Program-made: the position numbers and the translations under genes | Origin: a virus | Strand: one strand, 5' to 3' | Length of the DNA: 64,000 bases | IMG/VR virus record: IMGVR_UViG_3300034139_000007 | Span: 16,821-80,820 of that record | The notes under the pieces: generated by a model | What the model was told of the DNA's origin: nothing | Seen by the model: only the letters and a program-made list of their open reading frames with translations | The model's database searches: none | Part shown: one piece after another, positions 29,393 through 48,748 of the stretch | How the letters are laid out: each line of letters begins with the position of its first letter | Numbering within the stretch: the first letter of the stretch is position 1

Positions 29393-29408
29393 GCCCCTGA
29401 TTTAACGG

Positions 29409-30596
29409 TTAAAGTCCCGCAGCGGTCTCGGCACGCTGCAGTCGATCGATCTGCGGCGGGGCACTGTCGGTCAGGCCCAGCTCCGCTTCGATCTCATCGA
29501 GACGATCCGACAGGGTCTTGTCGTCCCAGTCGCTGTCGTCGATGTTGAGCGTGGCGCGGAGACGCTCGACGCGGTCGGTGAAGCTGACCGGTGCGTCGTC
29601 ACCGACAACCGGACCCAGGTCACCGCTCAGGTCGCGCATGGCCACCAGAGCCTCGACGCGAGAAGCATAGGTGTCCACGACGGTGCCCGCGGGGTTCACA
29701 AGGTCCCATTGATCGCCGTCACGGTCGGCCCAGAGCACACGCCAGCCAGCGTCCCAGGCGGCCAGGGCCGGACCGCAATCCTCACCCTCGGGCAAGGCAA
29801 ACTTGATGCCCTCACGCTGGTACAGGGCCACGCGGTCGTAGCTGAACACCAGCTGGTCCTCGCCCTCGAAGAAGACGCCCTCGCGGGCCTCCTGCATCGA
29901 GATCTCGAACAGCACCTCGTGCTTCTCGGTGCGGCCCTTGGAGCCGCCGCCGTCCTGCGGGAAAGACACGACGTCAGACGGGTCCTCGGCCATGATCAGG
30001 CAGCGATAGTCCGACATGCTCTTCAGGTACTTGTGATTGCAGAAGTGCAGGCCACGCGAGCAGGTGTTGTTGTAGTTGAGGTCGCACTCGTCGCGCGGCA
30101 TCCGAACGATCCGACCCGGTGAGTTGTCCATGGACCTGGTGTGGGCGTCCAGGTACTGCATGTTGACGTACCGATAGGCCAGGAAGCGACCGTCCGGCAG
30201 GATCGGCAGCTCGGCCCGCTCGACCCACTGAAACAGCATGTCGATGGCGTCGCGGGTCGGGTTGCGCATGACGCGGTCCAGGAACAGCGCATACGGCTCC
30301 GGGTCGCGGCCACGGTTCACCATCTGGAGGATGCGGTCGACGAGGTAGTTGTCGACACGTCGGCCCTGGAAGGTGACGCGACCGGCGAAGACGGTCACGT
30401 CGCCATAGTTGCCCAGGGCTTTGGTGAGGCGGTCCGAGGCGTTGACGATGCCGTCGACCTGGTCGTAGTCACCATTGGCGATGGCCGTCTTCAGCTCCTC
30501 GTATCGAGGGTTGTCCGACGGAACCGTGAAGGGCCTGCCGGCCACGAACACGGTCACGCTGTCAGCGGACACGATTGAGATCACAGGGTTAGTCAT
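29409..30596 (-). CDS. rIIB: rIIB-like protein
   Basis: LFQWVE...LPILPDGRFLAYR...DNSPG..VRMPR.ECD...TCSRGLHF; downstream of rIIA-like gene. Confidence 0.85.
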   Translation of the reverse strand: MTNPVISIVSADSVTVFVAGRPFTVPSDNPRYEELKTAIANGDYDQVDGIVNASDRLTKALGNYGDVTVFAGRVTFQGRRVDNYLVDRILQMVNRGRDPEPYALFLDRVMRNPTRDAIDMLFQWVERAELPILPDGRFLAYRYVNMQYLDAHTRSMDNSPGRIVRMPRDECDLNYNNTCSRGLHFCNHKYLKSMSDYRCLIMAEDPSDVVSFPQDGGGSKGRTEKHEVLFEISMQEAREGVFFEGEDQLVFSYDRVALYQREGIKFALPEGEDCGPALAAWDAGWRVLWADRDGDQWDLVNPAGTVVDTYASRVEALVAMRDLSGDLGPVVGDDAPVSFTDRVERLRATLNIDDSDWDDKTLSDRLDEIEAELGLTDSAPPQIDRLQRAETAAGL

Positions 30597-32784
30597 TCAG
30601 CTTGGTCCTTCTGAATGCGGCGAGGGCGGGGACGTCCACGTCGCTGTAGTTGAAGATGTTTGTCTCGGTCCGTTCCCAGATCGCGACGGCGAGGCGTAGT
30701 AGTGGAGATCGATTGTAGACTTTCTCGACCTCCTTGGCCACCGACACCCGCAGCTTCTTGGGTGTCGGCATGTCGAGCCCGGCACGACGGGCATAATCCC
30801 GGGCGTGATCGATCTCACGCTGGAGCGCGCTGGCATCCTCGGGAGCCTTGAGGGCTTCGAGGCGGGCCGTGATCGTCGGGAACAGGTCCGGGTGCCGGGT
30901 GGTCAGGCGGCGCACGGTCTTGGTGAGCTTGTCCTGATCGACCTGGGCCGCGGCGGCCTGACGGGCCAGCTCGGCCAGCACATCCGGGTTACGGATGGTC
31001 AGATCGAACTTGGCCTTGAGCCAGACGTCCAGACGGATGAAGTCCGCCTGATTACCGTCGCGCTTGACCTGGGCCTGGGCCTTCTTGGACAGACCCAGCA
31101 CCAGTTGGCCACCGTCGGTACGCCAGCTAGAGTTGATGACCTTGTTGTCGAAGCCGACCGTGTCGTCGATGTCGTGACCCGTAAGGGGGATGTAGACACC
31201 GGCGGTGGCCAGCTCGTCGGTCTGGTTCCAGTCCGAACGGCACCCGTGGTAGCGGTAGCCGCCATACTGGGTGCCAGGAGACAGGGTCAGGACGCGCAGC
31301 TCGGTCTTCTTGCCGCTGGCCAGCTTGGTCTTGGGCTCTGGCAGGGGCAGCTCCGACAACAACATGATGTTCTGGTCAGAGTAGCGCCAGTCGGCGAAGT
31401 GGGCACGCATGGCCTCGATGGAAGGCCAGTTGGGCACATCGGCACCCTTGTGGTCGAGACGATGGTCGAACAGATAGACCGCCAGCTTTCTGACGCCCAG
31501 ATCCTCGGCCAGTTGGCGAGCACGCGAGGTGACCCGGCGCTTGCTGTCGGACACGTCCTTCATGTCGTCAAAGACGAAGAACCGGTTGTCGCGGAAGGCG
31601 TCGACCGGGAAGGTGTCCTTGACGTAGCGACTGAAGGTGACCTCGGTCTTGTCACTCTTCCAGGACTTGGGCTCGACGTTCAGGACCTGCGGGCGACCGT
31701 AGGGCAGGGCGATCTCGTCGCGGATGCCCGGGAAGCCAGCGTGCTGGACGATGTCGCGCATCACGATGCCGGGCTTGGCGTCGGCCTTGATCTCGGGCCA
31801 CTTCTTGGTGATCATCGACCAGGTGTTGTTGTCCTTCAGCTTCTGGATGAACTCCAGCTGCTCGAAGGGGTTCATGGTCTTGACCAGCTCGAACTGCTGC
31901 TCGGCATAGTCGTCGCAGATCTGACGATACCGCTCGCGCAGCCGGGTCAGGGTCAGGGTGTCATACGACAGACCCTCACGGCTCGGCAGGAGGTCCAGCT
32001 CACCGATGCCGAACACCATGATGATGGTGCCGGGCAGCTTGGCGTCGCCCTCCTGGAGCACGATGCCCCAGTCCAGCGGGTAGGCGACCGGACCCATCAG
32101 GACGTAGGGCTTGGCCGGAGCCTCGGTGCGGACCCAGTAGTTGGACTTCTGATCGGTGTACTCGATCACCGGCACGTCAATGCCGTGGACCTCGTAGCTG
32201 CCCAGCGGCAAGTGCTGCAGCAGGTCAGCGGCAGTGCTCTCGAAGACGCCCCAGTCGTTGGTCTTGATCGGGACCTGGACCTGGATGCCGTCCGGCTCGT
32301 CGGTGGGCTGCTCATCGATGCGCGACATCTGAGGGATGCCGTCGCCGCCACGGTAGGCGGCGTAGCTGCGCTTGATGCCGGCCTGCACGGACGCCACGGT
32401 GAAGGCGTCGGCGTAGGCGAAGGGCGACTTGCAGCCCAGACCGAAGCCGCCGATGGCGTCGTCGCCCTGATCCTTGGTCGATGCACCGAACGAGGTGTAC
32501 ATCAGCATCACGTCGTCGTCGCTCATGCCGGGGCCGTAGTCGCGGATCGTCAGCATCGGCTCGATGTGGTTGGGCAGGCTGATCAGGATCGGACGGGTCT
32601 GGCCGTTCATGCCGTGGGCGTCCAGTGCGTTGCACGAGATCTCACGGATGACGGCCCGGGGTTTGTCCGAGTAGAGCTTATCGGCCAGGATGCTGAACAT
32701 CTTGGCGTTGCCCTGGATGGTGAAGGCGGCAGTCGGCAGCTCGTCGCTGACCGAGACGTCTCTCTTGAAGGCATCGGAACGCAT
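30589..32784 (-). CDS. rIIA: rIIA-like protein (GHKL ATPase N-terminus)
   Basis: LYSDKPRAVIREISCNALDAH, IRDYGPGM, FGASTK, IGGFGLGCKSPFAY. Confidence 0.88.
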   Translation of the reverse strand: MRSDAFKRDVSVSDELPTAAFTIQGNAKMFSILADKLYSDKPRAVIREISCNALDAHGMNGQTRPILISLPNHIEPMLTIRDYGPGMSDDDVMLMYTSFGASTKDQGDDAIGGFGLGCKSPFAYADAFTVASVQAGIKRSYAAYRGGDGIPQMSRIDEQPTDEPDGIQVQVPIKTNDWGVFESTAADLLQHLPLGSYEVHGIDVPVIEYTDQKSNYWVRTEAPAKPYVLMGPVAYPLDWGIVLQEGDAKLPGTIIMVFGIGELDLLPSREGLSYDTLTLTRLRERYRQICDDYAEQQFELVKTMNPFEQLEFIQKLKDNNTWSMITKKWPEIKADAKPGIVMRDIVQHAGFPGIRDEIALPYGRPQVLNVEPKSWKSDKTEVTFSRYVKDTFPVDAFRDNRFFVFDDMKDVSDSKRRVTSRARQLAEDLGVRKLAVYLFDHRLDHKGADVPNWPSIEAMRAHFADWRYSDQNIMLLSELPLPEPKTKLASGKKTELRVLTLSPGTQYGGYRYHGCRSDWNQTDELATAGVYIPLTGHDIDDTVGFDNKVINSSWRTDGGQLVLGLSKKAQAQVKRDGNQADFIRLDVWLKAKFDLTIRNPDVLAELARQAAAAQVDQDKLTKTVRRLTTRHPDLFPTITARLEALKAPEDASALQREIDHARDYARRAGLDMPTPKKLRVSVAKEVEKVYNRSPLLRLAVAIWERTETNIFNYSDVDVPALAAFRRTKLND

Positions 32785-32810
32785 GGTCGTATGTCCTTGC
32801 TTTTTAACGG

Positions 32811-33290
32811 TTAAAGAATGGTGATGCGCGTTGCGCTGTGCACCAGGGTTTTGGCCTGGAACCCACGAGGCAGGGGAATGTCGGACCTGACATTGTAGGG
32901 GTGCTTCTGCCCGATCTCGGTGGAGAGACCCTCCACCCTGATGGCACGGCGAAGCCAGATCGTGTCGCGGCTTTCGTTGCGCACGTCAGCCTCGCGCAGC
33001 AGGGCCTCGATCCCCCGCCAGGTCCATTGTGAGGACCAGTCGACGGTTGGCTTCCTGGCGCTGGCGATGAGGATGTGTGGCTCATAGCCCAGCACCGGTA
33101 GGTCACGATCCGACATCTTCACCGCCGACCGAAGCTGGAGGTGGATGGGCAAGCACGACGCGCGGACAGTCAAGCCGTAACGGGGCTTGCTGGTCGGCTC
33201 GGGCAGGAGCAGGCTGTTGTAGACGAAGTGGAAGACGTGGTCGCTCGGCCCCAGGTCGATGCAGAAGGGGATCGGATCTACTTCGGACAT
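32811..33290 (-). CDS. hypothetical protein
   Basis: GAGGAG SD; stop codon lies within motif A. Confidence 0.6.
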   Translation of the reverse strand: MSEVDPIPFCIDLGPSDHVFHFVYNSLLLPEPTSKPRYGLTVRASCLPIHLQLRSAVKMSDRDLPVLGYEPHILIASARKPTVDWSSQWTWRGIEALLREADVRNESRDTIWLRRAIRVEGLSTEIGQKHPYNVRSDIPLPRGFQAKTLVHSATRITIL

Positions 33291-33676
33291 GGGTCAATCT
33301 CCTCGAAGTCCAGCCCCTCGGACCACCACTCGCCGGCGGGGCCGCCACGCATCTCGATGTGGATGGTGCTGTTGGCACCGACATGGACGACCGACAGCAG
33401 GCTGTTGCTCAGGTCGACGCCGGGGTGAGTGTCCACCTCGCTCTCACCGAACACGCCGTCCGTGTGGCGGTCGCGCAGCTCCTTGGAGGCGAACCCGTCG
33501 GTGGGCAGGGTCTCGGTCCACGGATGGCGCTCGAAGGCCGCCAGCGGCCACAGGACCTCGGAGAAGTCCCACTTGCCACAGACGCGGAGCGCCTCGGTCA
33601 CGCGCTCGATGTCCAGGTCGAAGGAGATCAGCTGATCCTCTTCGTTTTCCTGCATCATGATCGTGTAGATTTTCAC
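33278..33676 (-). CDS. hypothetical protein
   Basis: in-operon GTGA overlap; acidic. Confidence 0.65.
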   Translation of the reverse strand: MKIYTIMMQENEEDQLISFDLDIERVTEALRVCGKWDFSEVLWPLAAFERHPWTETLPTDGFASKELRDRHTDGVFGESEVDTHPGVDLSNSLLSVVHVGANSTIHIEMRGGPAGEWWSEGLDFEEIDPCPK

Positions 33677-33885
33677 AGGTAGCTCTCCATGAGCTTGATG
33701 AAGGCGGGAAGGTCCGCCTTGGGGACTTCGATCTGGGCCGCCGTGGTGCGGTCGCCCTTGCTGTTGATCGGCATCAGCACAATCTCGGTCGGGGTGTCGT
33801 AGCTGCCGACCCCTATCTGGGTGCCGGAACGGTTCCGGCCCCAGTAGGCGGCGGTGCGCTTGTCGCCGAAGAGGATGTCAGGCAT
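33673..33885 (-). CDS. hypothetical protein
   Basis: in-operon overlap. Confidence 0.65.
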   Translation of the reverse strand: MPDILFGDKRTAAYWGRNRSGTQIGVGSYDTPTEIVLMPINSKGDRTTAAQIEVPKADLPAFIKLMESYL

Positions 33886-34300
33886 CGGCCTTCGGGGTCA
33901 CGATCCAGCTGGTCGCGGCCTTGCTCGTCTTCTTGGCCGCCGACAGGATGCTGGCGGCCTTGGCCGCACCGATCTCGTCGATCAGCAGCTTCATCAGGGC
34001 GTCCGGGTCGATCATCTCGCGACCGTTGGCGGTCTTGGCGAAGATCCGGTAGCTGTCGGTCTCGGCGAACTCGACCTGTTCGAGGCTGGGACGCTGCTCG
34101 GCATCGGTGATGATGCCCAGCTTCACGGCGGCGGTCTTGGCCTTCTTCTTGCGCGCCTCGGCCAGCGTGGCCAGGCTCAGCGCGGTCAACAGCTCGTGGG
34201 CCGCGAGGTCACGCTCGCCGCTCTCGGGCTTCGGCGCGGTGCCGTTGGTGGTGCCGATCTTCTTGAAGGCGGCAACGATTTTGTCGGTCAGGGTTCCCAT
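33878..34300 (-). CDS. hypothetical protein
   Basis: GGAG SD; strong codon bias; Lys/Ala-rich. Confidence 0.75.
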   Translation of the reverse strand: MGTLTDKIVAAFKKIGTTNGTAPKPESGERDLAAHELLTALSLATLAEARKKKAKTAAVKLGIITDAEQRPSLEQVEFAETDSYRIFAKTANGREMIDPDALMKLLIDEIGAAKAASILSAAKKTSKAATSWIVTPKADA

Positions 34301-34578
34301 GGGTCTTCTCCATCTTGGGCTAGCGGGATTGCTTGGTCGAAAAAGTACAGCAGGGCGATGAGGTCGGACCGGTCGGCGAACTTGTCGTCGCGGTCCTCGC
34401 CCTTCTGGACGCGGGCCAGCAGGTCGAGCGTGTACTCGATGCAGGCCTGCTGGTGGGTGGGGTTAGTCGGGGTCGCGTCGTTCAGGTAGAAGCTGTAGAA
34501 GCACGCCCCGAGATCCCCCACAGAGATATAGCTCCCCCATTGGGAGGCAATCTCGAAGGCTCTCTCGCGGGTAATCAT
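34288..34578 (-). CDS. hypothetical protein
   Basis: AAGGA SD; ASQWGSY...GDLGACFYSF. Confidence 0.7.
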   Translation of the reverse strand: MITRERAFEIASQWGSYISVGDLGACFYSFYLNDATPTNPTHQQACIEYTLDLLARVQKGEDRDDKFADRSDLIALLYFFDQAIPLAQDGEDPWEP

Positions 34579-34616
34579 CGTCGAAGTCCTTGTCTAACAG
34601 GGACTGCAGCGCAGGC

Positions 34617-35099
34617 TTATGCTGCAGCATTCGCCACCGCCTGAAGGAACTTGCCGTAGGCAGTGCCGTAGGCTTGGGTGGCGTGGGCCAGGTCGTGGGC
34701 CGCGGCTTGGAGGACGGCCTGGGCCTTGCTGATCTCGTCGGGGCCGTAGGCGACTTCCGCCTGTTCGGGCTCTTCGCCCTCGGTGCTGATCCAGCCGCCG
34801 GAGGCCAGCTTGGTGGCCACCTCGTCGAGGAAGTCGTTGAAGTCACCGATGAAACTTTTGACCTGATCGGGCATGTCGATCCGGTACTCGAAGAACCCAT
34901 CGACGACGGTCAGCTCCATCTGGTCATCCCAGTCGTAGTAGTTGCCCTCGTCGTCGGTTCTGGGCGGCGGGACGTCAGTGTCGTTTTCCCAGAAGCCAGC
35001 TCGGTCGCAGCCATGCTCCTTGAGCAGCTCGATGACGGTGGTGAGGGTGACGCCGTCCTTGAGGGGCACGACGCCGCGATAATAGACTGGTCCAGCCAT
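34617..35099 (-). CDS. hypothetical acidic protein
   Basis: AAGGA SD; acidic centre. Confidence 0.7.
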   Translation of the reverse strand: MAGPVYYRGVVPLKDGVTLTTVIELLKEHGCDRAGFWENDTDVPPPRTDDEGNYYDWDDQMELTVVDGFFEYRIDMPDQVKSFIGDFNDFLDEVATKLASGGWISTEGEEPEQAEVAYGPDEISKAQAVLQAAAHDLAHATQAYGTAYGKFLQAVANAAA

Positions 35100-35125
35100 G
35101 GTCGAACTTTCCTTACGGTGAAGGT

Positions 35126-35147
35126 TGGGGTGGCCGAAGCCACCCCG
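35126..35147 (-). other. UUCG stem-loop after gene 35156-36049
   Basis: GGGGTGGC-TTCG-GCCACCCC on - strand; no U-tract. Confidence 0.55.
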
Positions 35148-35155
35148 GTTTCAGA

Positions 35156-36049
35156 TCAGACGCCCAGCGTCGCCTTGACGGCGCGGACGTGCGGGGCCGA
35201 GCCGGTGAACGACTTGGCCAGGACGAACTGGAAGGCATCCCGGTCGCTGGCGATGGGACCATCGACGACGGCCAGGATGTTCTTGCCAGTGGGGCTCATC
35301 GCCCAGCCTTCGGACTGAGCCAGGTCGGCGTCAGCGGAGGCTTCCTCGATCTCCTCGATGCCGTCGATCTGGCGGTGGTGGTCGATCCACCCTGCCTTGA
35401 CGGGCATGGCGTCGAAGATGGCCTGGGCCTGACGCTTGGCGTCGGACGGGGTCCTGGCGCTGACGATCACCGACCGCTCGGAATAGACCCGCGCGTCCTG
35501 GATCACCTTGTAGTTCACGACCGGCGGGGCAGTAGCGACACCGGCAGGCTGGACCGGCAGGGTGAACTGGTTGCCGATCTGCAGGCGGTAGGAAGGCTTG
35601 CCTTCACGCAACTCGACCGACACGACAGTGCCGATGGCACCGCGATCAGCCGTATTGGCAGCAGGCGGGACGGGGCTGTAGGTCGTGTCAGCCGTGTCGT
35701 ACAGGTTCAGCTGCTGGAGGGTCTCCAGCTCGTCGCCGACCTTGAACTCGGCGTCGCCCAGCAGGATCATGGCGGCCAGCTCGCGGCAGTCATCGATGGT
35801 CAGGGTCTCGGCCTGGCCAGCGAGCCAGATCTGGATGGTGCCGTCTTCCAGAACCCACAGGCCGACAGGCAGGCGGTTCTGCGAGGCCCAGACGTTCTTG
35901 TCCGTCTTGAACGCCGGGGTGGCGACCTCGTCGGAGGCCAGGGCTTTGGCGAAGTTGGCGGCGTCTTCAGCGGACAGCTGGAGCGGGGCCGGCAGTTGGG
36001 GGTGAGCCAGGTCGAACCCAGCGTCGGTCTTGGTCAGAGTGATGTTCAT
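35156..36049 (-). CDS. hypothetical multi-domain protein
   Basis: AGGA SD before MNITLTK; SH3-like segment FKVGD...GTVVSV. Confidence 0.7.
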   Translation of the reverse strand: MNITLTKTDAGFDLAHPQLPAPLQLSAEDAANFAKALASDEVATPAFKTDKNVWASQNRLPVGLWVLEDGTIQIWLAGQAETLTIDDCRELAAMILLGDAEFKVGDELETLQQLNLYDTADTTYSPVPPAANTADRGAIGTVVSVELREGKPSYRLQIGNQFTLPVQPAGVATAPPVVNYKVIQDARVYSERSVIVSARTPSDAKRQAQAIFDAMPVKAGWIDHHRQIDGIEEIEEASADADLAQSEGWAMSPTGKNILAVVDGPIASDRDAFQFVLAKSFTGSAPHVRAVKATLGV

Positions 36050-36093
36050 CAGGGTGGTTCCTAGTTGATGGTTGGTACGCACGACTACCTCCG

Positions 36094-36384
36094 TCAGGAG
36101 GATCTGGGGATGATGAGGGTCGCTTGGTTGATGACCATCAGGGCAGCGAGCCATGTGGTCATCCTCTGCACAACGTGGATGGGGACGACGGGGTCGACGA
36201 TCAGCACAGGGCCGAGCATCAGGCCGGTCGGTTCGAAGTAGAAGGGCCGGATGCCGGGTGTCATGACGGACATGGGGTCCGAGACCAGCAGGCCGATCCC
36301 GGCGACCTCCACACCCGTGACGTGGGCGGGAGGCTCGACCGTCCGCACCAGCTGCGTGCGGGGATCAATCAGGATTGCCGTCAT
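36094..36384 (-). CDS. hypothetical protein
   Basis: MTAILIDP start typical of a small phage family; GGAG SD. Confidence 0.6.
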   Translation of the reverse strand: MTAILIDPRTQLVRTVEPPAHVTGVEVAGIGLLVSDPMSVMTPGIRPFYFEPTGLMLGPVLIVDPVVPIHVVQRMTTWLAALMVINQATLIIPRSS

Positions 36385-36736
36385 CGGGCAGCTCCAGACT
36401 GGGGTGCGGGCCGCTCAAGGTGTGACGGCGGCTGATGATGTAGTTGTAAGCCGCCACGCGGGCCTTAGGGAAGATGCCGGGCGTGGACCAGTCGAGGGTG
36501 GCGACCAGCTCGGGGACGAACTCGAAGTCGAAGGCCACGCGACCATCGTTGAAGTCGCCCTCGTTGATGACGTCGTAGACCAGCTCGACCCATTTGGCGA
36601 TGTCGAGGGCGTAGTCGCGCATGTCGAACGAGCCGCGGTTGCCCCACAAGGTATCGAGGCCGGGGCTCTTGTCGCGCTGGTCGATCATGGCCTCCCAGAC
36701 GATCATGCCCGTGGTTGCGATAACGTCGGTGATCAT
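36365..36736 (-). CDS. hypothetical protein
   Basis: starts 5 nt after motif A; FDFEFVP. Confidence 0.7.
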   Translation of the reverse strand: MITDVIATTGMIVWEAMIDQRDKSPGLDTLWGNRGSFDMRDYALDIAKWVELVYDVINEGDFNDGRVAFDFEFVPELVATLDWSTPGIFPKARVAAYNYIISRRHTLSGPHPSLELPDDGNPD

Positions 36737-36790
36737 TGGATTTTAACCGTTAAAGTGGCCCACTCCGGGATGGAGCGGGCCGGGTTGTAG

Positions 36791-38601: not shown

Positions 38602-38638
38602 GGATTTTACCCGTTAAAGTCTGAGGAAGGGGAAGGGT

Positions 38639-38662: not shown

Positions 38663-38674
38663 GGTGGCGGTCGA

Positions 38675-41095: not shown

Positions 41096-41114
41096 GGTAT
41101 TTTAACCGTTAAAG

Positions 41115-41471: not shown

Positions 41472-41474
41472 GGC

Positions 41475-41828
41475 TCACCAGATGTCCGAGGACAGCAGGT
41501 CGCGTCCGACAGTGAGCCACTGCTTGGTCAGCTGGCCGCTGGCGACGCCGATCTCCTTGGCCTGCTCGCGGGTCACGAACCGGTTGTTCGAGGTCCAGAA
41601 GCCGTAGGTGTCGGTGACGTCAGCCGTGTAGGGTTGGTCCCGGCCCAGGTTGACGCGCAGGTCAGAGTGCGACTTGAACCCATGGTGCAGGTTCCCTTGG
41701 GCGTCGACCAGGGCGCAGGCCATGATCATCTCGGGGTCGGTGTGGACTTTCGAGGTGTCCATCCGTGGCAGTTGGGCGGCGTTCTTGGCCATCGCCTTCT
41801 GCTCGCGGCGTCGGTCGGCTCGGGTCAT
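41475..41828 (-). CDS. hypothetical protein
   Basis: GFWTSNNRFVTREQA...LLSSDIW, a motif of a widespread phage family. Confidence 0.75.
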   Translation of the reverse strand: MTRADRRREQKAMAKNAAQLPRMDTSKVHTDPEMIMACALVDAQGNLHHGFKSHSDLRVNLGRDQPYTADVTDTYGFWTSNNRFVTREQAKEIGVASGQLTKQWLTVGRDLLSSDIW

Positions 41829-42079
41829 GCGGGCATCCTGTAAATGAGGCGTTCCAGCTCTTGCAGCTGGAGACGCGCGTTGGTGACGCGGCGAAGCGCC
41901 TCGTCGCGGGTATCGGTGCCTTCCTTGGCGTCCAGCTCGATCATCAGGAAGATGAACAGCGTGTCGCCCTGGGTGCGGCACTCGTCGAGGGTCTGGACGT
42001 GGGCATAGTCGCCCCCACCGTAGTTGTCCGCGACCAGGCGCTGGAAGGGGTTCAGCGGCGCTGGCTTGGGCTTGGGCAC
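41825..42079 (-). CDS. hypothetical protein
   Basis: GTG start with GGAGGA SD; YGGGDY...GDTLFIFLM.EL. Confidence 0.7.
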   Translation of the reverse strand: MPKPKPAPLNPFQRLVADNYGGGDYAHVQTLDECRTQGDTLFIFLMIELDAKEGTDTRDEALRRVTNARLQLQELERLIYRMPA

Positions 42080-42318
42080 AGCTCCTCCAGTGGCGTGGTC
42101 GCGGACGCCTTCTCGACGATGGGATAGCTGCCGTGGATGGTCCGCATGTAGCGGTCCCCGGTCAGCGGATCGAGCCAGATGGTCTGGCTGGCGCTGCACA
42201 CCCGCAGGACCTCAAGACGCTTGCGCGTCTCGTGGTCGTTGACCTGCTGCTGGGTCGGGGGTGCGGTGCAGGCGGTCAGTCCTGCGAGGAGGACAAGGAT
42301 GGCTTGATGACGTCCCAC
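42052..42318 (-). CDS. putative lipoprotein
   Basis: MGRHQAILVLLAGLTA-C lipobox. Confidence 0.6.
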   Translation of the reverse strand: MGRHQAILVLLAGLTACTAPPTQQQVNDHETRKRLEVLRVCSASQTIWLDPLTGDRYMRTIHGSYPIVEKASATTPLEELCPSPSQRR

Positions 42319-42722
42319 TTCACTTCTCCAGTTTCGATCAGGTGGTTCAGGACCACGGCGGCCTGTTCCGGGGTGGCTTGGTAGTAGCCGCTGCTGTCGC
42401 GGTCGCCGATTGGCGCGGCGTCGAACACGGGCGGGTAGAACAGCTGGCCAGCCTGGCCGCCGATCACCACCGGGGTGGGTTCGTGGTTCAGCCCCAGATA
42501 ATCCGCGGCAATGACCTCGATCTCCTCGCTGTCATTGCCCCGATAGCCGGCGGCATAGGCCGCCCAGCCAGCGATGCAGGCCGTGGTGTTGCAGGTGTGC
42601 AGGTTTTCGAGCGTGGCGTCGTAGCGGCCTCTGGGATTGTAGACCAGGTACGACATGTTGAAGTGCTGGGGCGCATCCAGGATCAGATCCCGGACATGAG
42701 CGATGTTCGCTTTATTCAGCAT
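42276..42722 (-). CDS. Cys-motif protein, paralog 1
   Basis: FNMS...CNTTACIAGWA...AADYLGL...QLF...TGEVKW. Confidence 0.8.
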   Translation of the reverse strand: MLNKANIAHVRDLILDAPQHFNMSYLVYNPRGRYDATLENLHTCNTTACIAGWAAYAAGYRGNDSEEIEVIAADYLGLNHEPTPVVIGGQAGQLFYPPVFDAAPIGDRDSSGYYQATPEQAAVVLNHLIETGEVKWDVIKPSLSSSQD

Positions 42723-42888
42723 CGGGAACGATCCTGACGAGACGACGGCCTTCGGGCTCTTCGTCGATGATGATGGTGGCCTTGCCGGTCAGCAAAGCTG
42801 ACACGCCAGTGAGGATCGCGTCGAACATCTGTTCGCGGTTCTCTTCCTGCTGGCGGCGGGCGGCCTGTTGCATTTCGTAGTCACGCAT
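42712..42888 (-). CDS. hypothetical protein
   Basis: AGGAGA SD before MRDYEM. Confidence 0.55.
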   Translation of the reverse strand: MRDYEMQQAARRQQEENREQMFDAILTGVSALLTGKATIIIDEEPEGRRLVRIVPDAE

Positions 42889-42952
42889 CTCGGTTTCTCT
42901 CCTTGCCTGCCTTGCGGCGTCGGCGTTGTGGCGTTTCCAGGCTCGGCGGCGG

Positions 42953-43096
42953 TTACGACCGGGCTTCAATGTCCGCCTCGACCTGAGCCACGGTGCTGGC
43001 ACCGTTTTGCACGGCGACAGCCGCGAGGCGGTGGCGGGCTCGGTCGGGGGAGCGGAACTGGTTCACCAGATCGGCGCGTTGGGCGTTGGTCAGCAT
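42953..43096 (-). CDS. small hypothetical protein (47 aa, not in the ORF track)
   Basis: motif A, then AAGGA SD, then MLTNAQRADLVNQF...EARS stop. Confidence 0.6.
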   Translation of the reverse strand: MLTNAQRADLVNQFRSPDRARHRLAAVAVQNGASTVAQVEADIEARS

Positions 43097-43141
43097 GGTC
43101 GTAAGTCCTTGTTTTTAACGGTTAAAGTGGAGGGTGGAGGG

Positions 43142-43543
43142 TCAGTCTTTGAAGATCTCGGCGGGGTCCAGCTCGCCGTGGAGGACCTGGCGCAGTTCCT
43201 CCAGGATCTTGGGTCGCACTTGGCCCGCGGCGTCGGTGGCCTCGTCGTGGGTGTTCTGCAGATTGCAGATCAACTGCAGCTCGGCAGGGTCGCAGGTCAG
43301 GATCGGATCATCCTCCATGGTCAGCAGGGTGCTGATGGCCGAGGCGTTGTGGCCCCGCTTGTCGATGATCGCGAAGACCTCGTCGGGGATGGCCGCGCCG
43401 ACCACGCAGGGCAGCTTAGTGAAAGGGTCGCGGTAGGTGCACGCGCCGACCCCGTTCTGGGCCTGTAGCCGCTCCTCGTCGAAGGCCTTGCGGCCAGCTT
43501 CGATGATGTTGGCGACGGTCAGGTGGAAGGGGGCAGCGGTCAC
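43142..43543 (-). CDS. Cys-motif protein (CxY...CVVG, LQxxHD)
   Basis: ACTYRD...PCVVGAAI...LQNTHD; AAGGA SD. Confidence 0.75.
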   Translation of the reverse strand: MTAAPFHLTVANIIEAGRKAFDEERLQAQNGVGACTYRDPFTKLPCVVGAAIPDEVFAIIDKRGHNASAISTLLTMEDDPILTCDPAELQLICNLQNTHDEATDAAGQVRPKILEELRQVLHGELDPAEIFKD

Positions 43544-43899
43544 CAGTTCAGTTCCTTTTCGATGCGGGTCGGCCAGGTGGGGAGCGCGTTGCCTTGGATG
43601 AGGCTGTCGATGGCCGCCAGGGTGGTGGGTTTGTCGATCTTGCCGATGGCTTGCGGGCCGAGGTGCGACAGGAACAGGTAGTTGGCCTGCTGCGGGGTCA
43701 GGCCCAGAAAGTCGCGAGCCTGGGCCAGGCTGGGGGCGGCAGGGGTGTAGTCGGGCATCGCGGTGCAGGCCCAGCCAGCGATGCAGCGAGGGCTCCCGCA
43801 GTCCTTGGGGTTGCCGACCTCTCGCATGTCGACGAGGGCGTCGGGGGCGTCGGCGATCAGGCCGCGGACCAGGGTGAAGTTGGCGATGTTCAGGGCCAT
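43540..43899 (-). CDS. Cys-motif protein, paralog 2
   Basis: VDMRE...CGSPRCIAGWA...ARDFLGL...YLF. Confidence 0.8.
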   Translation of the reverse strand: MALNIANFTLVRGLIADAPDALVDMREVGNPKDCGSPRCIAGWACTAMPDYTPAAPSLAQARDFLGLTPQQANYLFLSHLGPQAIGKIDKPTTLAAIDSLIQGNALPTWPTRIEKELNW

Positions 43900-44276
43900 T
43901 GGACTTCTCCGGTTTCGGCGAGCCGGCGCAGGGTCGCGACGGCTTGGGCTTGGGTGATGCTGGCCCAGTCGAGATCAGGCATGAAGAGTTGCTCGATCAG
44001 ATGCTGATCGTCATCGATGCCCAACCATTTGGCTGCAGCGTTGGTGGGGTCGCCGGTCAGGCCGAGGCGGACATCGACCCGCTCCCCGGGAGGGGTGGCG
44101 AGAGCCTGCGCCCAACCGCCGATGCAGGCGCACGTCCCACAGTCGTGGATCAGGTCCGCGGCAGTGACCATCGCCGCTTCATTGCCGACTTGGGTGGCCC
44201 AGAAGCGCATGTTGAACCGTTCGGGCGGCAGGGCCTCGATCAGGTTGGCCAGGAGGGTGATGTTTTGAGTATTCAT
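43890..44276 (-). CDS. Cys-motif protein, paralog 3
   Basis: FNMRFW...CGTCACIGGWA...AAKWLGI...QLF...TGEVQW. Confidence 0.8.
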   Translation of the reverse strand: MNTQNITLLANLIEALPPERFNMRFWATQVGNEAAMVTAADLIHDCGTCACIGGWAQALATPPGERVDVRLGLTGDPTNAAAKWLGIDDDQHLIEQLFMPDLDWASITQAQAVATLRRLAETGEVQWP

Positions 44277-44312
44277 CGGAGATGACCCAGTCTTTGTTTA
44301 ACGGTTAAAGTA

Positions 44313-44570
44313 TCAGGCTCGACGTTCGAGGCGAGCGACCGGAGTGGTGGCAGGCTGGTCCTGCACGATGGTGACCTGGGCGCGGAACGTCGGCCCGACC
44401 TGCCACAGCTGGAACGCGCGGTGGGTCCGCTCGGTGAGTGCGCCTTGGCCGGTCTTCTGGGCCGAGGCGTAGCTCATTTTCAGGGGCTGGCCGTCGTTGC
44501 CGGTGAAGGCCTCGAAGCGTTCGGGGCCGGTGTTCGGGCACAGGGCCAGGATGTAGGTTTCGGCGCTCAT
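44313..44570 (-). CDS. hypothetical protein
   Basis: ATGA overlap with protease gene, AGGA SD. Confidence 0.6.
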   Translation of the reverse strand: MSAETYILALCPNTGPERFEAFTGNDGQPLKMSYASAQKTGQGALTERTHRAFQLWQVGPTFRAQVTIVQDQPATTPVARLERRA

Positions 44571-45076
44571 TGGGCGGGTTCCTGTTGACACATGGGGGTG
44601 GTGGCCAGCTCGATGATGCCGACCTTGCCGTCAGCCGTGGTGGCGCTGATGATGCCGACGAGCCGGTCCTGCTCATCGACGACCGCGCCGCCGGACATGC
44701 CTGGCTCGGGGGTGCGAGATGGGTCCGCGCCACGTAGGTTGTAGGTGATTTGGGTCGGGGCGACGCGGACATCGTATCGCGTGTCGATGGCGCGGACTGT
44801 GGATCTGGCCCGGGAGCCTATGAGGCGATACGTCTCGTTGGTGGTGATCGGGGCGCAGCTGACGGTCATCTGGCGCTGGAAGGGCCGGTCGGGGTCCGTG
44901 GTGAGGATGACCACGTCGCTGTCGGCGTCCTGGTAGACGATGGTCGCGGACCTGTTGTCGATGATGCAGGTGTCGTTTTGGAAGACGTGCGCTGCTGAAA
45001 TGACGGTGTTCGGGGCGATGACCACGCCGGAGCCGAAGCCCATGGCGCAGCTGATCAGAACGACTTCGATACCCAT
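44567..45076 (-). CDS. trypsin-like serine protease
   Basis: GSGVVI...ISAAHV (His), SDVVIL (Asp), PGMSGGAV (Ser), LVGI. Confidence 0.85.
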   Translation of the reverse strand: MGIEVVLISCAMGFGSGVVIAPNTVISAAHVFQNDTCIIDNRSATIVYQDADSDVVILTTDPDRPFQRQMTVSCAPITTNETYRLIGSRARSTVRAIDTRYDVRVAPTQITYNLRGADPSRTPEPGMSGGAVVDEQDRLVGIISATTADGKVGIIELATTPMCQQEPAQ

Positions 45077-45093
45077 GGTGTGAGGCCTTTTGG

Positions 45094-45495
45094 TTAGTGG
45101 ATGGGGGGCGCGAGGTAGGTCCGCGTCGCCTCGAATGAGGTTGAAATCCAGTTGTCGACCGACTGGCGAAGCTCCAGGTTCTGCGCGTCGGTCAGCTGCA
45201 GTTCCTTGGTTATGTGATCGACATACTGGACCAGATTGGCCAGATCGCCGACGTAGCTGTCGTGGTGCTCGACGCCCTGGGTGTCGATGAAGTCAGCTCT
45301 CAGCTCACCGTTCACGGACACGATGGGGCGGCTCGTATAGCGGGCGGGGGCGGCTGCGGGGTGCGGTGGCAAGTCCCGCGCTGCGAGGATTTGGGCATGG
45401 AGCGAGTTCACCGATGGACCCCACATGAGCCGCGTGTCGAGGTCCATGGCGAAGAGCTGCTTCGCGGACTGGGGTCGGAGGGGTGGGAGTTTCAT
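45094..45495 (-). CDS. hypothetical protein
   Basis: in-strand ORF filling the gap. Confidence 0.55.
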   Translation of the reverse strand: MKLPPLRPQSAKQLFAMDLDTRLMWGPSVNSLHAQILAARDLPPHPAAAPARYTSRPIVSVNGELRADFIDTQGVEHHDSYVGDLANLVQYVDHITKELQLTDAQNLELRQSVDNWISTSFEATRTYLAPPIH

Positions 45496-45575
45496 TGGGA
45501 GGGTCGCTCGTGGTGGAGGGTGGAGGGGTGCCCGGTCCTGTTTCGTGGCGCGCAGACCGGGCTATGATGCGCCTG

Positions 45576-46061
45576 TCAGCTAGGCCATGTGTCACCTCCG
45601 GGGTCGTAAGGGAGTGCGCGAGCGTGCTTCAGGACGCCGGCGATAGCGGGGAGAGGCAGGTTCAGGTGGAGGGGCTCGCCGTCGTTCAGATGGACGATGG
45701 TCCAGTAGAAGGCGTTCGAGCGTTTCTCGCTGATCGTGAACTCGGTCGTATACATGTCCAGCTGTTCGATGCCCGCGACTTTCAGCCCTAGCAGCAGGGC
45801 GTTGGCGTTGCCGTGGCGGGCGAAATACTGGCGGATCGTGTCGGGGTAGAAGACCGCGAGGCCGGCACCCTGGGCGCAGAAGCAGGGGGTCTGGTTGTCG
45901 AACTTCACCATCACCCCCGTGGCTTTGATAGTGGCCGGATCTTCGAGGGCGGTCATCCAAGCGTCAAAAGCAGTCTGGTCGGCTTGGCTGAGTTCTCGTG
46001 TCAGGCTCGACTGTTGCGATGGTTCGAGGCTTTCGAAGATTTCTTTGGGAGAGTTTAACAT
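45576..46061 (-). CDS. Cys-motif protein (W..AL...CFCAQG...LND)
   Basis: ATG embedded in the motif A variant; WMTALE, CFCAQG, HLND. Confidence 0.65.
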   Translation of the reverse strand: MLNSPKEIFESLEPSQQSSLTRELSQADQTAFDAWMTALEDPATIKATGVMVKFDNQTPCFCAQGAGLAVFYPDTIRQYFARHGNANALLLGLKVAGIEQLDMYTTEFTISEKRSNAFYWTIVHLNDGEPLHLNLPLPAIAGVLKHARALPYDPGGDTWPS

Positions 46062-46062
46062 G

Positions 46063-46686
46063 TTAAAGTTCCTGGGCCTCGATGAGGGCTTCATTGATGA
46101 TGTCCAGATCGTATACTCCACCTACGGCGTCGAATACTTCCTGGGGCGTCTTGTCGCGCAACTCCATCGCGGCGATGGTGTCAGCGCATTCTGTCACGTC
46201 CTGCTGGCGGCTTGGGGGTGTGGCCAGAGCCTGCACCTGCCACGGGAGCGGGACCGCGTCGGGGTCGCTGGGGATGATTTCCAGCTTGTAGTGGTGCGGG
46301 TTGATACAGGGCACCCATCCGCGGGGCAGGCTGGGGTTCGAGATGATTGTGGCGGGACCGCGAACCTCGACACGCGATCCCGAAGGGGTATCACCCAAAA
46401 TCGAGGGGGCTTCACCGTCAGGCTCGACAGGCTCACAAAACAGGAACGGGCCGCGCGTGCCTTGATGCGAGACGCGGTGGGAACTGTGGATCGGTTGCTG
46501 GAGGATAAGGGATAGGCACGCGCGGGGGGTCGACATCATCGTCTCGCCGGACCAGATCAGCCGTGGCCCGGGCCAGCATGGCGTGGCTTTATTGGGCCAG
46601 CTGGTCAGGTCAGGCCAATGGCCTAACATCTGCGACAGGCGGGTCTGGAGATCGGTCGAGGGGCGTCCGCCCTTGGTCTGGCTCAT
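46063..46686 (-). CDS. hypothetical protein with degenerate HNH/Zn-loop signatures
   Basis: PCWPG and CINPHHY; stop lies in motif A variant; preceded by motif B. Confidence 0.5.
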   Translation of the reverse strand: MSQTKGGRPSTDLQTRLSQMLGHWPDLTSWPNKATPCWPGPRLIWSGETMMSTPRACLSLILQQPIHSSHRVSHQGTRGPFLFCEPVEPDGEAPSILGDTPSGSRVEVRGPATIISNPSLPRGWVPCINPHHYKLEIIPSDPDAVPLPWQVQALATPPSRQQDVTECADTIAAMELRDKTPQEVFDAVGGVYDLDIINEALIEAQEL

Positions 46687-46705
46687 AGTTGGCTACTACC
46701 ACGAA

Positions 46706-46718
46706 TATCTAGTGGATA
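46706..46718. promoter_or_regulatory. palindromic motif B, copy 6
   Basis: TATCTAGTGGATA. Confidence 0.65.
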
Positions 46719-46825
46719 AAATAGGGCTTGCCAGTCTCTGCGAACGGGACCAGGCTGCGCCTTGGGCGGCCCGGCGAAACAACAGGATTTCCAGGCTGGA
46801 GGTTTCCATAACAGGATCGACCGTC

Positions 46826-46910
46826 CATTTACTATTCTATCTTATATTCTTTTCTATAGATAAAAAATTTTAAGAGAATAGTGTTTCGGCTTTTTATTCC
46901 GTTTGGAAAC
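46826..46910. other. very AT-rich non-coding tract, candidate replication origin/unwinding element
   Basis: CTATTCTATCTTATATTCTTTTCTATAGATAAAAAATTTTAAGAGAATAG in an otherwise GC-rich genome. Confidence 0.4.
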
Positions 46911-46927
46911 CCCCGCTCTCAGGCGCT

Positions 46928-47413
46928 TTACGCCGCACCCCGGCCCAAGAGCCTCGCACGGACCTCTTCACGCGACAAAATCGGCCCCGGACGACGACGC
47001 ACTACCGGCACCGCGTCGACGCGCTCCAGCTCCAGCACCACGTCGCGCACGTCGTAATCGCTAGCCTCGCACAGACGATGGACCTCATCCCAGGCCATAT
47101 CGACCGTGGGAGCGGAGATCGTCCAGAACCGAACCCCGCGTGCCTTGACCACGTAACGATCCCCACCCGCGAGCTGCGGCAGGCAAGTCGCGGGCGGGGC
47201 ACGCGGGGTGTCATCTATGAACACCTTGGGTGGCTTGCACCAGACGAGGGCTACTGTGTCGAACACCAGATCGTTCGTACCTAGCAGCTGCTGGCCGGCA
47301 CCGGGCAGGCCCAGATCCTGCGACGCGGGGATTTGCTGGCGACCGACCACGGCACCGACGTCATCGGTGCTGGTGGTCTTCACGGCGTCGAGGCCGAAGC
47401 GGGATTTTAACAT
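46928..47413 (-). CDS. hypothetical protein
   Basis: ATG embedded in motif A variant. Confidence 0.55.
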   Translation of the reverse strand: MLKSRFGLDAVKTTSTDDVGAVVGRQQIPASQDLGLPGAGQQLLGTNDLVFDTVALVWCKPPKVFIDDTPRAPPATCLPQLAGGDRYVVKARGVRFWTISAPTVDMAWDEVHRLCEASDYDVRDVVLELERVDAVPVVRRRPGPILSREEVRARLLGRGAA

Positions 47414-47414
47414 G

Positions 47415-47648
47415 TTAAAAACTCCAGTGAATGAGGATGCCGCACAGGCACAGAACCATGGCGGGGATGGCGATGGCCGCGACCGCGTCCTGGATGGCTG
47501 CGTCGCGCTGGAAACGGTAGGCTGCACTCTTGAACCGGTCGCGGGCCTCGAAAAGACAGACCAGACCCAGGATGATGGTCAGTAGGGCCAGGCCCGCGCC
47601 GCCGAAGCGGGCGAACATTTGGGCCAGGACCAAGATTTCAGAACTCAT
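47415..47648 (-). CDS. small 2-TM membrane protein
   Basis: two hydrophobic segments; start after motif A; stop in motif A variant. Confidence 0.6.
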   Translation of the reverse strand: MSSEILVLAQMFARFGGAGLALLTIILGLVCLFEARDRFKSAAYRFQRDAAIQDAVAAIAIPAMVLCLCGILIHWSF

Positions 47649-47677
47649 CGGCTTCGCCTTTTTAACCGTTAAAGTGG

Positions 47678-47752
47678 AAGGGGCTCTTGTCGCACGCGCG
47701 TAACGCGCACAGGCGTGCGACAAGAGCCCCTTGGTGCTTTCGCACCAAGGGG
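47678..47752. repeat. perfect 20-bp inverted repeat plus overlapping second hairpin
   Basis: AAGGGGCTCTTGTCGCACGC (47678-47697) / GCGTGCGACAAGAGCCCCTT (47713-47732); CCCCTTGGTGC-TTTC-GCACCAAGGGG (47727-47752). Confidence 0.85.
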
Positions 47753-47779
47753 TCAGGGGAGGGGACTTTAACCGTTAAA

Positions 47780-48421
47780 TCAGGCGGCGATGGCCTCCTG
47801 CGACGGGGCGGCGCGGGCCGTCAGGCCCTTGTCCAGCATGGCGAACAGGGTTTCCAGCGCCTGCGTCGCTTCCGGCGATGCGTTGTCCAGCAACGCGGCG
47901 ATGGCCTTGGAAGCCGTGGTCTGGCAATCCAGAACCGGGTTATAGTCCGGGTTCAGGACAGTCAGGCCCGCCTCGTCGTCGCCCTCCTCGCGGATATTGT
48001 CCGTCTTGGCCTGCTCTTGCTCAATGGCCGTGGTCGCCTTGCCGGCCTTTTGTTCCTCAATCCACTTGCGGGGATTGATCGACGCCGCATAGGCGGTCAC
48101 GGCGGCGTCAAACTCTTCCGGCGTCATGGCTTCCGGCGAGGGGATGGCCTTGCGGGCATTGGCAAGGTTCGCGTCATCCTTGAAGAAGGTGTTAGCGCGG
48201 GACTTGTGCACGGCGGCGACGCCGCCACCCTTGGATTGAGGGACCTTTTCGCCGACAAGTGTCGACACGGCTTTGAGCGAGAGGGTCGGGTCGGCGACGA
48301 TGAAGGCGACGAACAGAGCCGTCATCGTCGAGGCGACTTTGCCCGTCGCCTTTTCGGCTTTGGAAGCCGCGTCGCGGGCGGCATGAACGGCGGAGGCGGT
48401 ATGCGTTTGAACGTTGAACAT
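47780..48421 (-). CDS. hypothetical Ala/Lys-rich protein, first gene of the early array
   Basis: AAAGGG SD, strong codon bias, flanked by motif A on both sides. Confidence 0.75.
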   Translation of the reverse strand: MFNVQTHTASAVHAARDAASKAEKATGKVASTMTALFVAFIVADPTLSLKAVSTLVGEKVPQSKGGGVAAVHKSRANTFFKDDANLANARKAIPSPEAMTPEEFDAAVTAYAASINPRKWIEEQKAGKATTAIEQEQAKTDNIREEGDDEAGLTVLNPDYNPVLDCQTTASKAIAALLDNASPEATQALETLFAMLDKGLTARAAPSQEAIAA

Positions 48422-48748
48422 TGTGTGCCCTTTCAAGGCGAAGGTTGAAGTTTAACCGTTAAAGTTTGGGAGTAAGTTGCAAGTCATAAGGGTGGTCACT
48501 CGCCGACCTACTGGGTCAGCACCTGTCACGCGCGCGGGGCGCGTGAACCCTCTTCATGTATGGCCTTGCTTCCGTCTCCTTCTCTTCATCCGATAACTAA
48601 GAATACCCTATCCTACCATGCAGAGGGGGTGCAGCACGAAGGTGTACACCCTCTCTGGTCAGTGGTGGCGTGGGGAGAGATGCGACCATCCGAGAAACAC
48701 TCCCGGAAAAAATCCGCAGAAAAAGCACTAGTAACGTACAAAAGGCAT

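Follow-up and report, generated by a model that had tools for sequence, protein, structure and literature searches.

A palindrome restricted to early gene junctions in a relative of Caulobacter phage Seuss: a candidate lineage-specific dyad operator array

Inverted-repeat operators located in early or early-accessory regions and read by a phage helix-turn-helix (HTH) protein are represented by the phiC31 sites called CIRs, bound by the c repressor, and by the operators of Aca-type HTH autorepressors in anti-defence operons. The repressors of both systems are identified, phiC31 is temperate, and Aca operators occur once or twice per promoter, as opposed to the array of twelve sites described here. 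In Cluster A mycobacteriophages, multi-copy sites known as stoperators belong to the L5 gp71-type immunity repressor (PMC9283540, PMC6550527). Cluster O mycobacteriophages carry 17-bp dyad repeats of the form TGTTCGG-NNN-CCGAACA, of which Corndog has 34 copies and whose function is unproven (PMC4351075). The promoter-early stem-loop (PeSL) modules of T4-type phages consist of sigma-70 early promoters and terminators (PMC2839356, PMC4122927). Here, we present an analysis of a 13- or 14-bp palindrome found at gene junctions of the early accessory region in IMG/VR virus record IMGVR_UViG_3300034139_000007 from a biocrust metagenome. The record comprises 80,820 bp (95% complete, 64% GC); the window analysed, to which all coordinates refer unless stated otherwise, is the stretch of 64,000 nucleotides from base 16821 to base 80820.

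We favour the reading that the palindromes form a lineage-specific dyad operator array for a phage-encoded dimeric regulator that would control the early block, probably by shut-off or as a roadblock in the manner of stoperators, and we give it an even chance of being correct. Layouts of this kind are already known from stoperators, the Cluster O dyad repeats (PMC4351075) and the CIRs of phiC31. New are the occurrence in the group of phages around Seuss, JWF and Lumi, the limitation to one temporal block in phages for which lysogeny genes were not found, and an operator that is merged with the signals for ribosome binding, stop and start. The sites resemble stoperators in being 13-bp words with many copies in short intergenic gaps of transcribed operons, in commonly overlapping stop codons, and in a word specificity that differs between related phages; the proposed action is also shared, with initiation blocked at the promoter-proximal site and elongation elsewhere. 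However, stoperators are asymmetric with an orientation tied to transcription, whereas the sites here are perfect dyads with asymmetry only in the centre and flanks, which track translation signals. Stoperators are also read by a monomer with two DNA-binding domains, are found on both genome arms and serve lysogenic immunity, while the present sites occur only in the early block, in a phage for which lysogeny genes were not found, serve as ribosome-binding sites as well and have only a candidate reader. With the Cluster O repeats they share invariant inverted half-sites, a variable centre and copy numbers in the tens. Those repeats, in contrast, are spread genome-wide with many copies inside genes, whereas the present sites lie only at junctions of one temporal block and vary in spacer length.

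The palindrome has two forms. The 13-bp form TTTAAC-S-GTTAAA (TTTAACSGTTAAA) is present in nine exact copies and one copy with a single mismatch (38606), with none expected in 100 shuffles, and the 14-bp form TTTAAC-AT-GTTAAA (TTTAACATGTTAAA) is present at 46054 and 47406, again with none expected; twelve copies are thereby counted in all. A first-pass annotation made from the letters of the window had listed these twelve copies and had seen no full copy elsewhere in the window. All of them are there, and the exclusivity extends to the remaining 16.8 kb of the record, which holds no copy, and to patterns with up to two mismatches, which revealed no further one. The hexamer TTTAAC is the only strongly over-represented word in the genome, and 23 of its 25 occurrences on both strands fall inside the copies. 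All copies are confined to 29.4-48.5 kb of the window, where the genes are co-oriented on the minus strand, and 12/12 lie at gene junctions, in agreement with the earlier claim that every copy marks a gene boundary.

Read on the coding strand, the site is (a)cTTTAAC-S-GTTAAA(a). Other details of the first-pass annotation were likewise borne out: the upstream gene ends on the TAA of a half-site in four cases (29409, 32811, 46063 and 47415), most copies stand shortly before the next start, and some leave no room for a Shine-Dalgarno (SD) sequence. Three copies (36742, 38606 and 41101) are followed by an ATG after 4-5 nt and lack a separate SD, five have the ATG 12-29 nt further on, and in both 14-bp copies the downstream gene starts on the central ATG itself (TTTAAcATG). 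What comes after copies 29401 and 47767 is GC-rich hairpins and not a start; GC hairpins adjoin five of the twelve copies. The asymmetric AC extension that had been described for most copies is carried by nine, with copy 47767 having it inverted.

The phage is a Seuss-like siphovirus and does not belong to the T4-like phages. The plus strand carries annotated tailed-phage genes for a large terminase, a portal, a major head protein, a tape measure of 1,886 amino acids (aa) and a J-like tail protein. The minus strand forms a single long gene block, located between 52.5 kb and 5.2 kb of the window, that starts with a primase, continues with about 19 kb of small and mostly unknown genes together with a 667-aa DUF8224 protein, rIIA and rIIB, and ends with genes for a helicase, a DNA polymerase, SbcCD, a ligase and a ribonucleotide reductase. 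Among named phages, Caulobacter phage Seuss is the closest (82.8% aa identity in the major head protein), with a genome of 85,138 bp and terminal repeats of 1,748 bp, followed by the Achromobacter phages JWF and 2-1 and Xylophilus phage Lumi. Since the ribonucleotide reductase is most similar to that of Brevundimonas (75%), the host is probably a member of the Caulobacteraceae. No RNA sequencing run was listed as containing the phage. A closer relative, hereafter rel1, is the 54.9-kb record IMGVR_UViG_3300043465_001344 (primase 82% identical in aa sequence).

Rel1 contains 13 copies of TTTAAC-N1-2-G(T/G)TAAA, all within the block downstream of the primase and none elsewhere. Eight of them occupy orthologous junctions, among them those at the first gene, the 77-aa gene, the TTTAACATGTTAAA start, DUF8224, rIIA and the position after rIIB, where the same hairpin follows. 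In these eight pairs 96/96 half-site bases are identical between the two phages, compared with 62/160 (39%) in the 20 nt on either side of the site, and the spacer differs in five of the eight, including changes between 1 and 2 nt in length. Because the half-sites are invariant while flanks and spacer drift, selection at these junctions acts on the two inverted half-sites and on nothing else. The AC extension is weak in rel1 (5/13 copies).

The more distant relatives have words of their own. TTTAAC-S-GTTAAA is missing from Seuss, which has the palindrome TTTACC-TSA-GGTAAA instead; it precedes the orthologues of the first and second terminal-repeat genes, of rIIA and of DUF8224, plus one other early gene. 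Between this phage and Seuss both half-sites are altered together, from AAC/GTT to ACC/GGT. In the matching early region of JWF (68,996-81,390 of its genome) there are ten copies of gGTTCGT-N-ACGAACc, mostly 12-24 nt upstream of starts, and in that of Lumi (58,217-82,651) there are 17 copies of TTACT-N5-AGTAA, some with a central AGGAG and an ATG 2-3 nt later. The motif scan of the genome and its relatives that had been proposed with the first-pass annotation gave no copy outside the junction array, 13 copies in the early block of rel1 and other words in Seuss, JWF and Lumi. A private early-region palindrome is thus an architecture common to the phage group. None of the four motif words occurs in the searchable literature, and the papers on Seuss and Lumi are silent on such repeats.

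Searches for additional relatives gave little. Megablast against GenBank phages with 8 kb of the phage found no match, no loci related by rIIA were found, and of the 80 loci returned by a DUF8224 search not one was syntenic or contained the motif. A query with the first early protein gave no matches in JGI metagenome contigs and only rel1 in IMG/VR. A pattern scan of IMG/VR with a 15-mer gave only chance single matches in AT-rich contigs, and one contig with two copies (L063) was unrelated.

The block and the sites are listed below in the direction of transcription.

29409..48421, minus strand: early accessory gene block of about 38 small genes, mostly ORFans, plus DUF8224, rIIA and rIIB; hyperplastic in comparison with Seuss and rel1.
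48464..48781, minus strand: intrinsic terminator (48781-48754) followed by a non-coding leader that is 84% identical to that of rel1.
48451..48463, minus strand: copy 1 (TTTAACGGTTAAA on the coding strand), downstream of the conserved leader of about 290 nt; the first early gene has its ATG 29 nt further on; the copy is orthologous to rel1 2601.
47767..47779, plus strand: copy 2, the only inverted copy (AC on the plus strand), abutting the TGA of gene 47780-48421, with GC hairpins next.
47674..47766, minus strand: GC-rich double hairpin between copies 2 and 3, terminator-like but without a U-tract.
47661..47673, minus strand: copy 3, with AAGG directly after the site and, 12 nt on, the ATG of the 77-aa membrane-like gene 47415-47648.
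47406..47419, minus strand: copy 4, the 14-bp TTTAACATGTTAAA; its TAA is the stop of 47415-47648 and its ATG the start of 46928-47413; kept in rel1 (3666).
46054..46067, minus strand: copy 5, 14-bp variant; its TAA is the stop of 46063-46686 and its central ATG the start of 45576-46061.
44297..44309, minus strand: copy 6; the upstream TGA lies 3 nt before it and the ATG of 43890-44276 20 nt after it.
43114..43126, minus strand: copy 7, with aacAAGGActtacgaccATG next (SD class).
41101..41113, minus strand: copy 8, without a separate SD; the 667-aa DUF8224 gene 39092-41095 has its ATG 5 nt further on.
38606..38618, minus strand: copy 9, the hybrid TTTAACGGGTAAA, 4 nt before the ATG of 38410-38601, with a GC hairpin ahead in 38619-38674.
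36742..36754, minus strand: copy 10, 5 nt before the ATG of 36365-36736, with a GC hairpin ahead in 36755-36790; the whole unit is absent from rel1.
32803..32815, minus strand: copy 11, in whose TAA gene 32811-33290 ends; aagcAAGGAcatacgaccATG of rIIA (30589-32784) comes next.
29401..29413, minus strand: copy 12, the end of the array; its TAA is the stop of rIIB (29409-30596), followed by a hairpin with a 13-bp stem at about 29371-29400.

Several results bear on the molecule in which the palindrome is recognised. RNA folding of four copies returned the dyad hairpin as the predicted fold in 0/4 cases; the minimum free energies of 0 to -1.8 kcal/mol came from other pairings and were no better than those of shuffled sequences. 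As the word forms no stable RNA hairpin in this phage, its symmetry has a meaning only in duplex DNA. The feature common to all lineages is dyad symmetry in duplex DNA, which is the signature of a dimeric DNA-binding protein. Five complete Brevundimonas genomes contain no copy of the word, and 151 Caulobacteraceae genomes contain four single matches, compared with twelve for a reversed control pattern. The word is thus not a host regulatory site. This also applies to CtrA, which the first-pass annotation had rightly dismissed, the spacing being N3 or N4 and not the N7 of the TTAA-N7-TTAA boxes in front of host cell-cycle genes, and the word being at or below background in the same 151 genomes. 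The absence from the host family together with the lineage-specific words points to a phage-encoded reader. A reading of the sites as dispersed centromeres of a plasmid-prophage, as in N15, was dropped, no ParA or ParB having been found.

Translation signals are overlaid on the site. In this phage and rel1 taken together, a G stands ahead of the right half-site on the coding strand in 8/8 copies that lie 3-5 nt before an ATG, compared with only 2/8 copies that have a separate SD (AAGGA); the association has a Fisher p = 0.0035, or p = 0.016 for six independent junctions. The central G yields CGGU, GGGU or AGGU 10-11 nt before the AUG, and the Seuss equivalent is GAGGU. In the hybrid TTTAAC-G-GGTAAA one base of symmetry is lost and the SD-like run is improved, and the hybrid occurs almost only in that orientation. 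At the DNA level the centre is free, and on the coding strand it is non-random. The mild asymmetries are explained by the overlays of SD, stop and start, and no directional primary function is needed. The Seuss sites have the annotated SD (GAGG or GGAGG) in their centre and are followed by an ATG at distances of 1, 2, 5 and 6 nt. Because the ATG of the first Seuss gene follows only 2 nt after a site whose centre contains the annotated SD (GAGG), the transcript must start upstream of the site, which therefore has an operator position between promoter and start codon.

The same overlays could also be taken as the actual function. In that case the sites would act at the RNA level, as a translational operator, an enhancer or an mRNA processing site at the adjacent start, for which T4 RegA and RegB are the models. 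Such a role would fit the position of the site 0-30 nt from start codons, the SD-like central bases that track the absence of another SD, and the location of the SD in the centre or loop in Seuss and Lumi; moreover, the Seuss and JWF words can fold as RNA (-3.5 and -7.0 kcal/mol). Nevertheless, we regard it as quite improbable, for the word of this phage gives no stable hairpin and complementary halves have no symmetry meaning in single-stranded RNA. Start codons are not adjacent to copies 29401 and 47767 or to rel1 copies 3301, 4398 and 19990, and copy 47767, being inverted, would present a different sequence in the RNA. A general RNase E or S1 signal does not fit, since AU-richness is lacking in the words of JWF and Lumi; the reading as an RNase E site or AU-rich enhancer was dropped on this ground. 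An Rfam scan of 29-49.5 kb gave two sub-threshold chance matches only.

The arrangement of hairpin, site and start is also what would be expected of a promoter. The sites would then be promoters of a phage-specific class in a PeSL-like terminator-then-promoter module, with transcription starting about 5-6 nt downstream of the site, so that SD-less genes would have leaderless mRNAs and the others short SD-bearing leaders. For this, a phage factor would redirect the host polymerase, or the phage would have a polymerase that has escaped recognition. The copies differ very little from one another, as is the case for phage-polymerase promoters, GC hairpins stand directly ahead of copies 36742 and 38606 and of rel1 copies 12473 and 14660, the distance to the ATG is 3-5 nt at eight junctions of this phage and rel1, and leaderless translation is common in Caulobacter. 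Furthermore, sigma-70-type promoters are not found above chance in 29.1-49 kb with the E. coli consensus. We nonetheless think this explanation unlikely. No phage RNA polymerase family was detected among the scanned proteins, the 14-bp copies contain the start codon itself, and copies 29401 and 47767 lead into hairpins instead of genes. In Seuss the SD is inside the site and the distance to the ATG is 1, 2, 5 or 6 nt, which means that the spacing is not fixed and that transcripts must include the site. Four lineages have a perfect dyad, and such symmetry is no property of promoters. Finally, one orthologous junction consists of hairpin and site in rel1 and of hairpin and ordinary SD without a site in this phage, so the site is not needed to express the downstream gene.

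Three specific forms of promoter or polymerase were tried and rejected. A host sigma-70-type promoter in the right half (TAAAAT-like) would place the start inside or after the ATG. An N4-type hairpin promoter (5-bp stem, 3-nt loop, start 11 nt from the loop centre) fits three copies numerically, but there is no virion RNA polymerase and the Seuss spacings do not match. The 667-aa protein encoded at 39092-41095 on the minus strand was considered as a hidden RNA polymerase and shows no similarity to N4 RNAPII; its family in the Atlas is DUF8224. It belongs to PF26675, which is present in 521 GenBank phage records, in large phages of Salmonella, Klebsiella, Caulobacter, Pseudomonas and other hosts. 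A single GenBank record labels a homologue 'DNA-directed RNA polymerase', a label that our results do not support. In the structure model (pLDDT 84.5) the C-terminal part matches the TerD beta-sandwich (Foldseek E about 1e-4), and this TerD-like match was the only significant one.

Gene exchange beside the sites has to be considered as a third possible function. The first-pass annotation had offered a minimal recombination joint that would turn the early region into an exchangeable cassette array, comparable to integrons or PeSL modules. The early block is indeed much more plastic than the replication block. Gene order near the sites is A/BC/E..F in this phage and BC/A F/E in rel1, the unit of hairpin, site and gene at 36365-36790 is absent from rel1, and between the two phages one 63-aa open reading frame has been inserted between a site and its gene. 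A relative of about 90% identity from wastewater runs has gene 41115-41471 replaced by 152 other bases, with the breakpoint at 41114 directly beside copy 41101-41113. In the proposed comparison of breakpoints, made across two relatives and thus too small for statistics, one breakpoint and the reordering lie beside sites and other breakpoints do not; the 41114 replacement, for example, has its far end at 41475, away from any site. Gene boundaries would be expected to carry breakpoints in any case.

As the primary function, recombination is highly improbable. An integrase or site-specific recombinase was found neither among about 60 window proteins scanned against Pfam and PHROGs nor in the Seuss annotation. 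A length of 13 bp is short for homologous exchange, the words differ between lineages, so that no exchange between lineages could use them, and conserved half-sites around a free centre are a signature of protein recognition and not of crossover. Compared with integron attC sites, the right half does resemble GTTRRR and upstream stops do fall in the first box. However, IntI is lacking, and the halves are 1-2 nt apart in a total of 13-14 bp, which leaves no L''/L' boxes and no imperfect palindrome of 57-141 bp. In addition, the left 7-mer CTTTAAC has Y where RYYYAAC needs R, and the seventh base after GTTAAA is A instead of Y in 7/12 copies. The integron-like mechanism is accordingly abandoned. 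PeSL modules are likewise short repeated modules beside a stem-loop that flank small ORFans in a hyperplastic early region, and the gene exchange seen here resembles that in T4-type phages, where indels and replacements between close relatives abut the PeSL modules. The present sites are unlike them in having no detectable promoter consensus (E. coli consensus scan), in being a perfect dyad, and in belonging to a siphovirus of Alphaproteobacteria rather than a T4-type phage. Recombination at the repeated modules is likely a by-product rather than the function.

An early-gene operator, which was the other alternative of the first-pass annotation, is the best supported by half-site conservation, private words, absence from hosts and the lack of an RNA hairpin; binding and shut-off are the parts we infer. 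According to this proposal, the sites would be double-stranded-DNA operators with inverted half-sites TTTA(A/C)C around a free centre of 1-2 bp, read by a putative phage-encoded dimeric DNA-binding protein. They would lie inside one or more leftward early transcription units begun in the conserved leader at the genome end, with one site between leader and first gene and the others at internal gene junctions. The bound protein would place the whole early block under joint control, the likeliest effect being shut-off or damping, by occlusion of the promoter-proximal site and a block to elongating RNA polymerase at each junction, following stoperator logic. Because intergenic space is minimal, translation signals would be written over the operator: the G-rich centre as a mini-Shine-Dalgarno, the half-site TAA as a stop and the ATG of the 14-bp centre as a start. 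Sites and adjacent GC hairpins would together make up short repeated modules beside which genes are gained, lost and reordered, probably as a by-product of recombination.

For the reader there is one candidate.

25821..26267, minus strand: 148-aa dual-HTH protein with an N-terminal HTH and a C-terminal XRE HTH_3 domain, candidate only.

This protein is the only recognisable regulator, and it is kept in rel1 (66%), Seuss (gp077, 41%), JWF (gp066, 27%) and Lumi (HMM E = 4e-18). Its XRE recognition region is nearly identical in rel1, which has the same word, slightly different in Seuss, which has a related word, and unrelated in JWF, which has a different word. Its PDB matches are weak and of the XRE type only. 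Upstream of its gene stands one copy of a second palindrome family, motif B (TRTCYASTRGAYA), with eight copies compared with 0.18 expected.

337-349, 2619-2631, 8238-8250, 22849-22861, 26288-26300, 46706-46718, 56745-56757 and 63959-63971: the motif B copies.

They stand 19-97 nt ahead of genes at the boundaries of middle, late and lysis operons of either strand, several of them directly after terminators. Rel1 has one exact copy and two copies with one mismatch, and Seuss has none.

A number of observations weigh against the operator array and its candidate reader. The divergence of the dual-HTH protein tracks overall phage divergence, and the protein is indistinguishable from a reader of motif B, which precedes its gene (26288-26300). 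The Pfam scan of the early proteins gave no DNA-binding domain; the first early protein (gene 47780-48421), a homologue of Seuss gp120 (28% identity, E = 5e-14), is all-helical in its predicted model, which has no PDB match. The spacer varies by 1 bp within one genome (13- and 14-bp forms), which is unusual for a rigid dimer, and the flanks are mildly asymmetric (AC on the 5' side in this genome, A on the 3' side). At several sites a GC hairpin comes directly before the site and an SD-less ATG 4-5 nt after it, an arrangement that terminator, promoter and leaderless gene would also give. Moreover, lysogeny genes were not seen in the phage, so that the purpose of a repressor array would have to be a temporal switch. 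No integrase was found in it, and a primase query of 401 Caulobacteraceae genomes detected no Seuss-like prophage, with two weak matches, one in genome G032. According to the Lumi paper JWF is temperate; this would matter for the question of what such arrays are for.

A broader version of the proposal is possible but rather doubtful. Seuss-, JWF- and Lumi-like siphoviruses, which are without visible lysogeny genes, might share a layer of control not described before: in each lineage the early accessory genes would have ribosome-binding sites merged with a private dyad operator, and the operator would have a fast-co-evolving phage reader, possibly the dual-HTH protein. This reader might perhaps also act on motif B and so form an early-to-late switch, and the same modules might serve as breakpoints for the exchange of anti-host cassettes.

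If the operator reading is correct, a single protein-DNA interaction would govern about 38 early genes, probably of host-takeover or anti-defence function, and it would be explained how early accessory regions can be both co-regulated and highly plastic. Each lineage would provide a compact orthogonal operator-repressor pair. As the group includes a cultivable model, Seuss on Caulobacter crescentus CB15, temporal control would be directly testable. The combination of operator, Shine-Dalgarno, stop and start in 13 bases would be a clear case of multi-layer coding in a compact genome.

The leader in front of the array (48464-48753, about 290 nt, non-coding) is more conserved than the neighbouring genes and includes an almost invariant block of about 45 nt. 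The terminator ahead of it (48781-48754) is the only clear intrinsic terminator in the region. Presumably the leader holds one or more host-type early promoters, which a consensus search did not identify. If the 1,748-bp repeat of Seuss is taken as a guide, the physical end of the genome probably falls in the leader, and the leader itself probably lies within the terminal repeat, which is collapsed in the contig. Inside the early block, the gap 46687-46927 is an AT-rich stretch of 241 nt with motif B and long A/T runs, in surroundings where the local GC content falls to 0.61 (46-48 kb). The terminal repeat may have its inner boundary here, or the gap may represent an origin or a region of strong promoter activity.

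Some minor observations concern other parts of the block. C-rich runs of the CCACCCTCC type, which resemble the 16S anti-SD, are located at 43127-43141, 45496-45575 and 38619-38640, between GC hairpins or stops and the next site or start. Diverged paralogues of PHROG 889 (43890-44276, 43540-43899 and 42276-42722) are distributed over two adjacent site-delimited modules, and the family is present in rel1 in another order. The early gene 44567-45076 on the minus strand encodes a protein of 169 aa with a trypsin-like serine peptidase domain (Pfam Trypsin_2, E = 1e-11).

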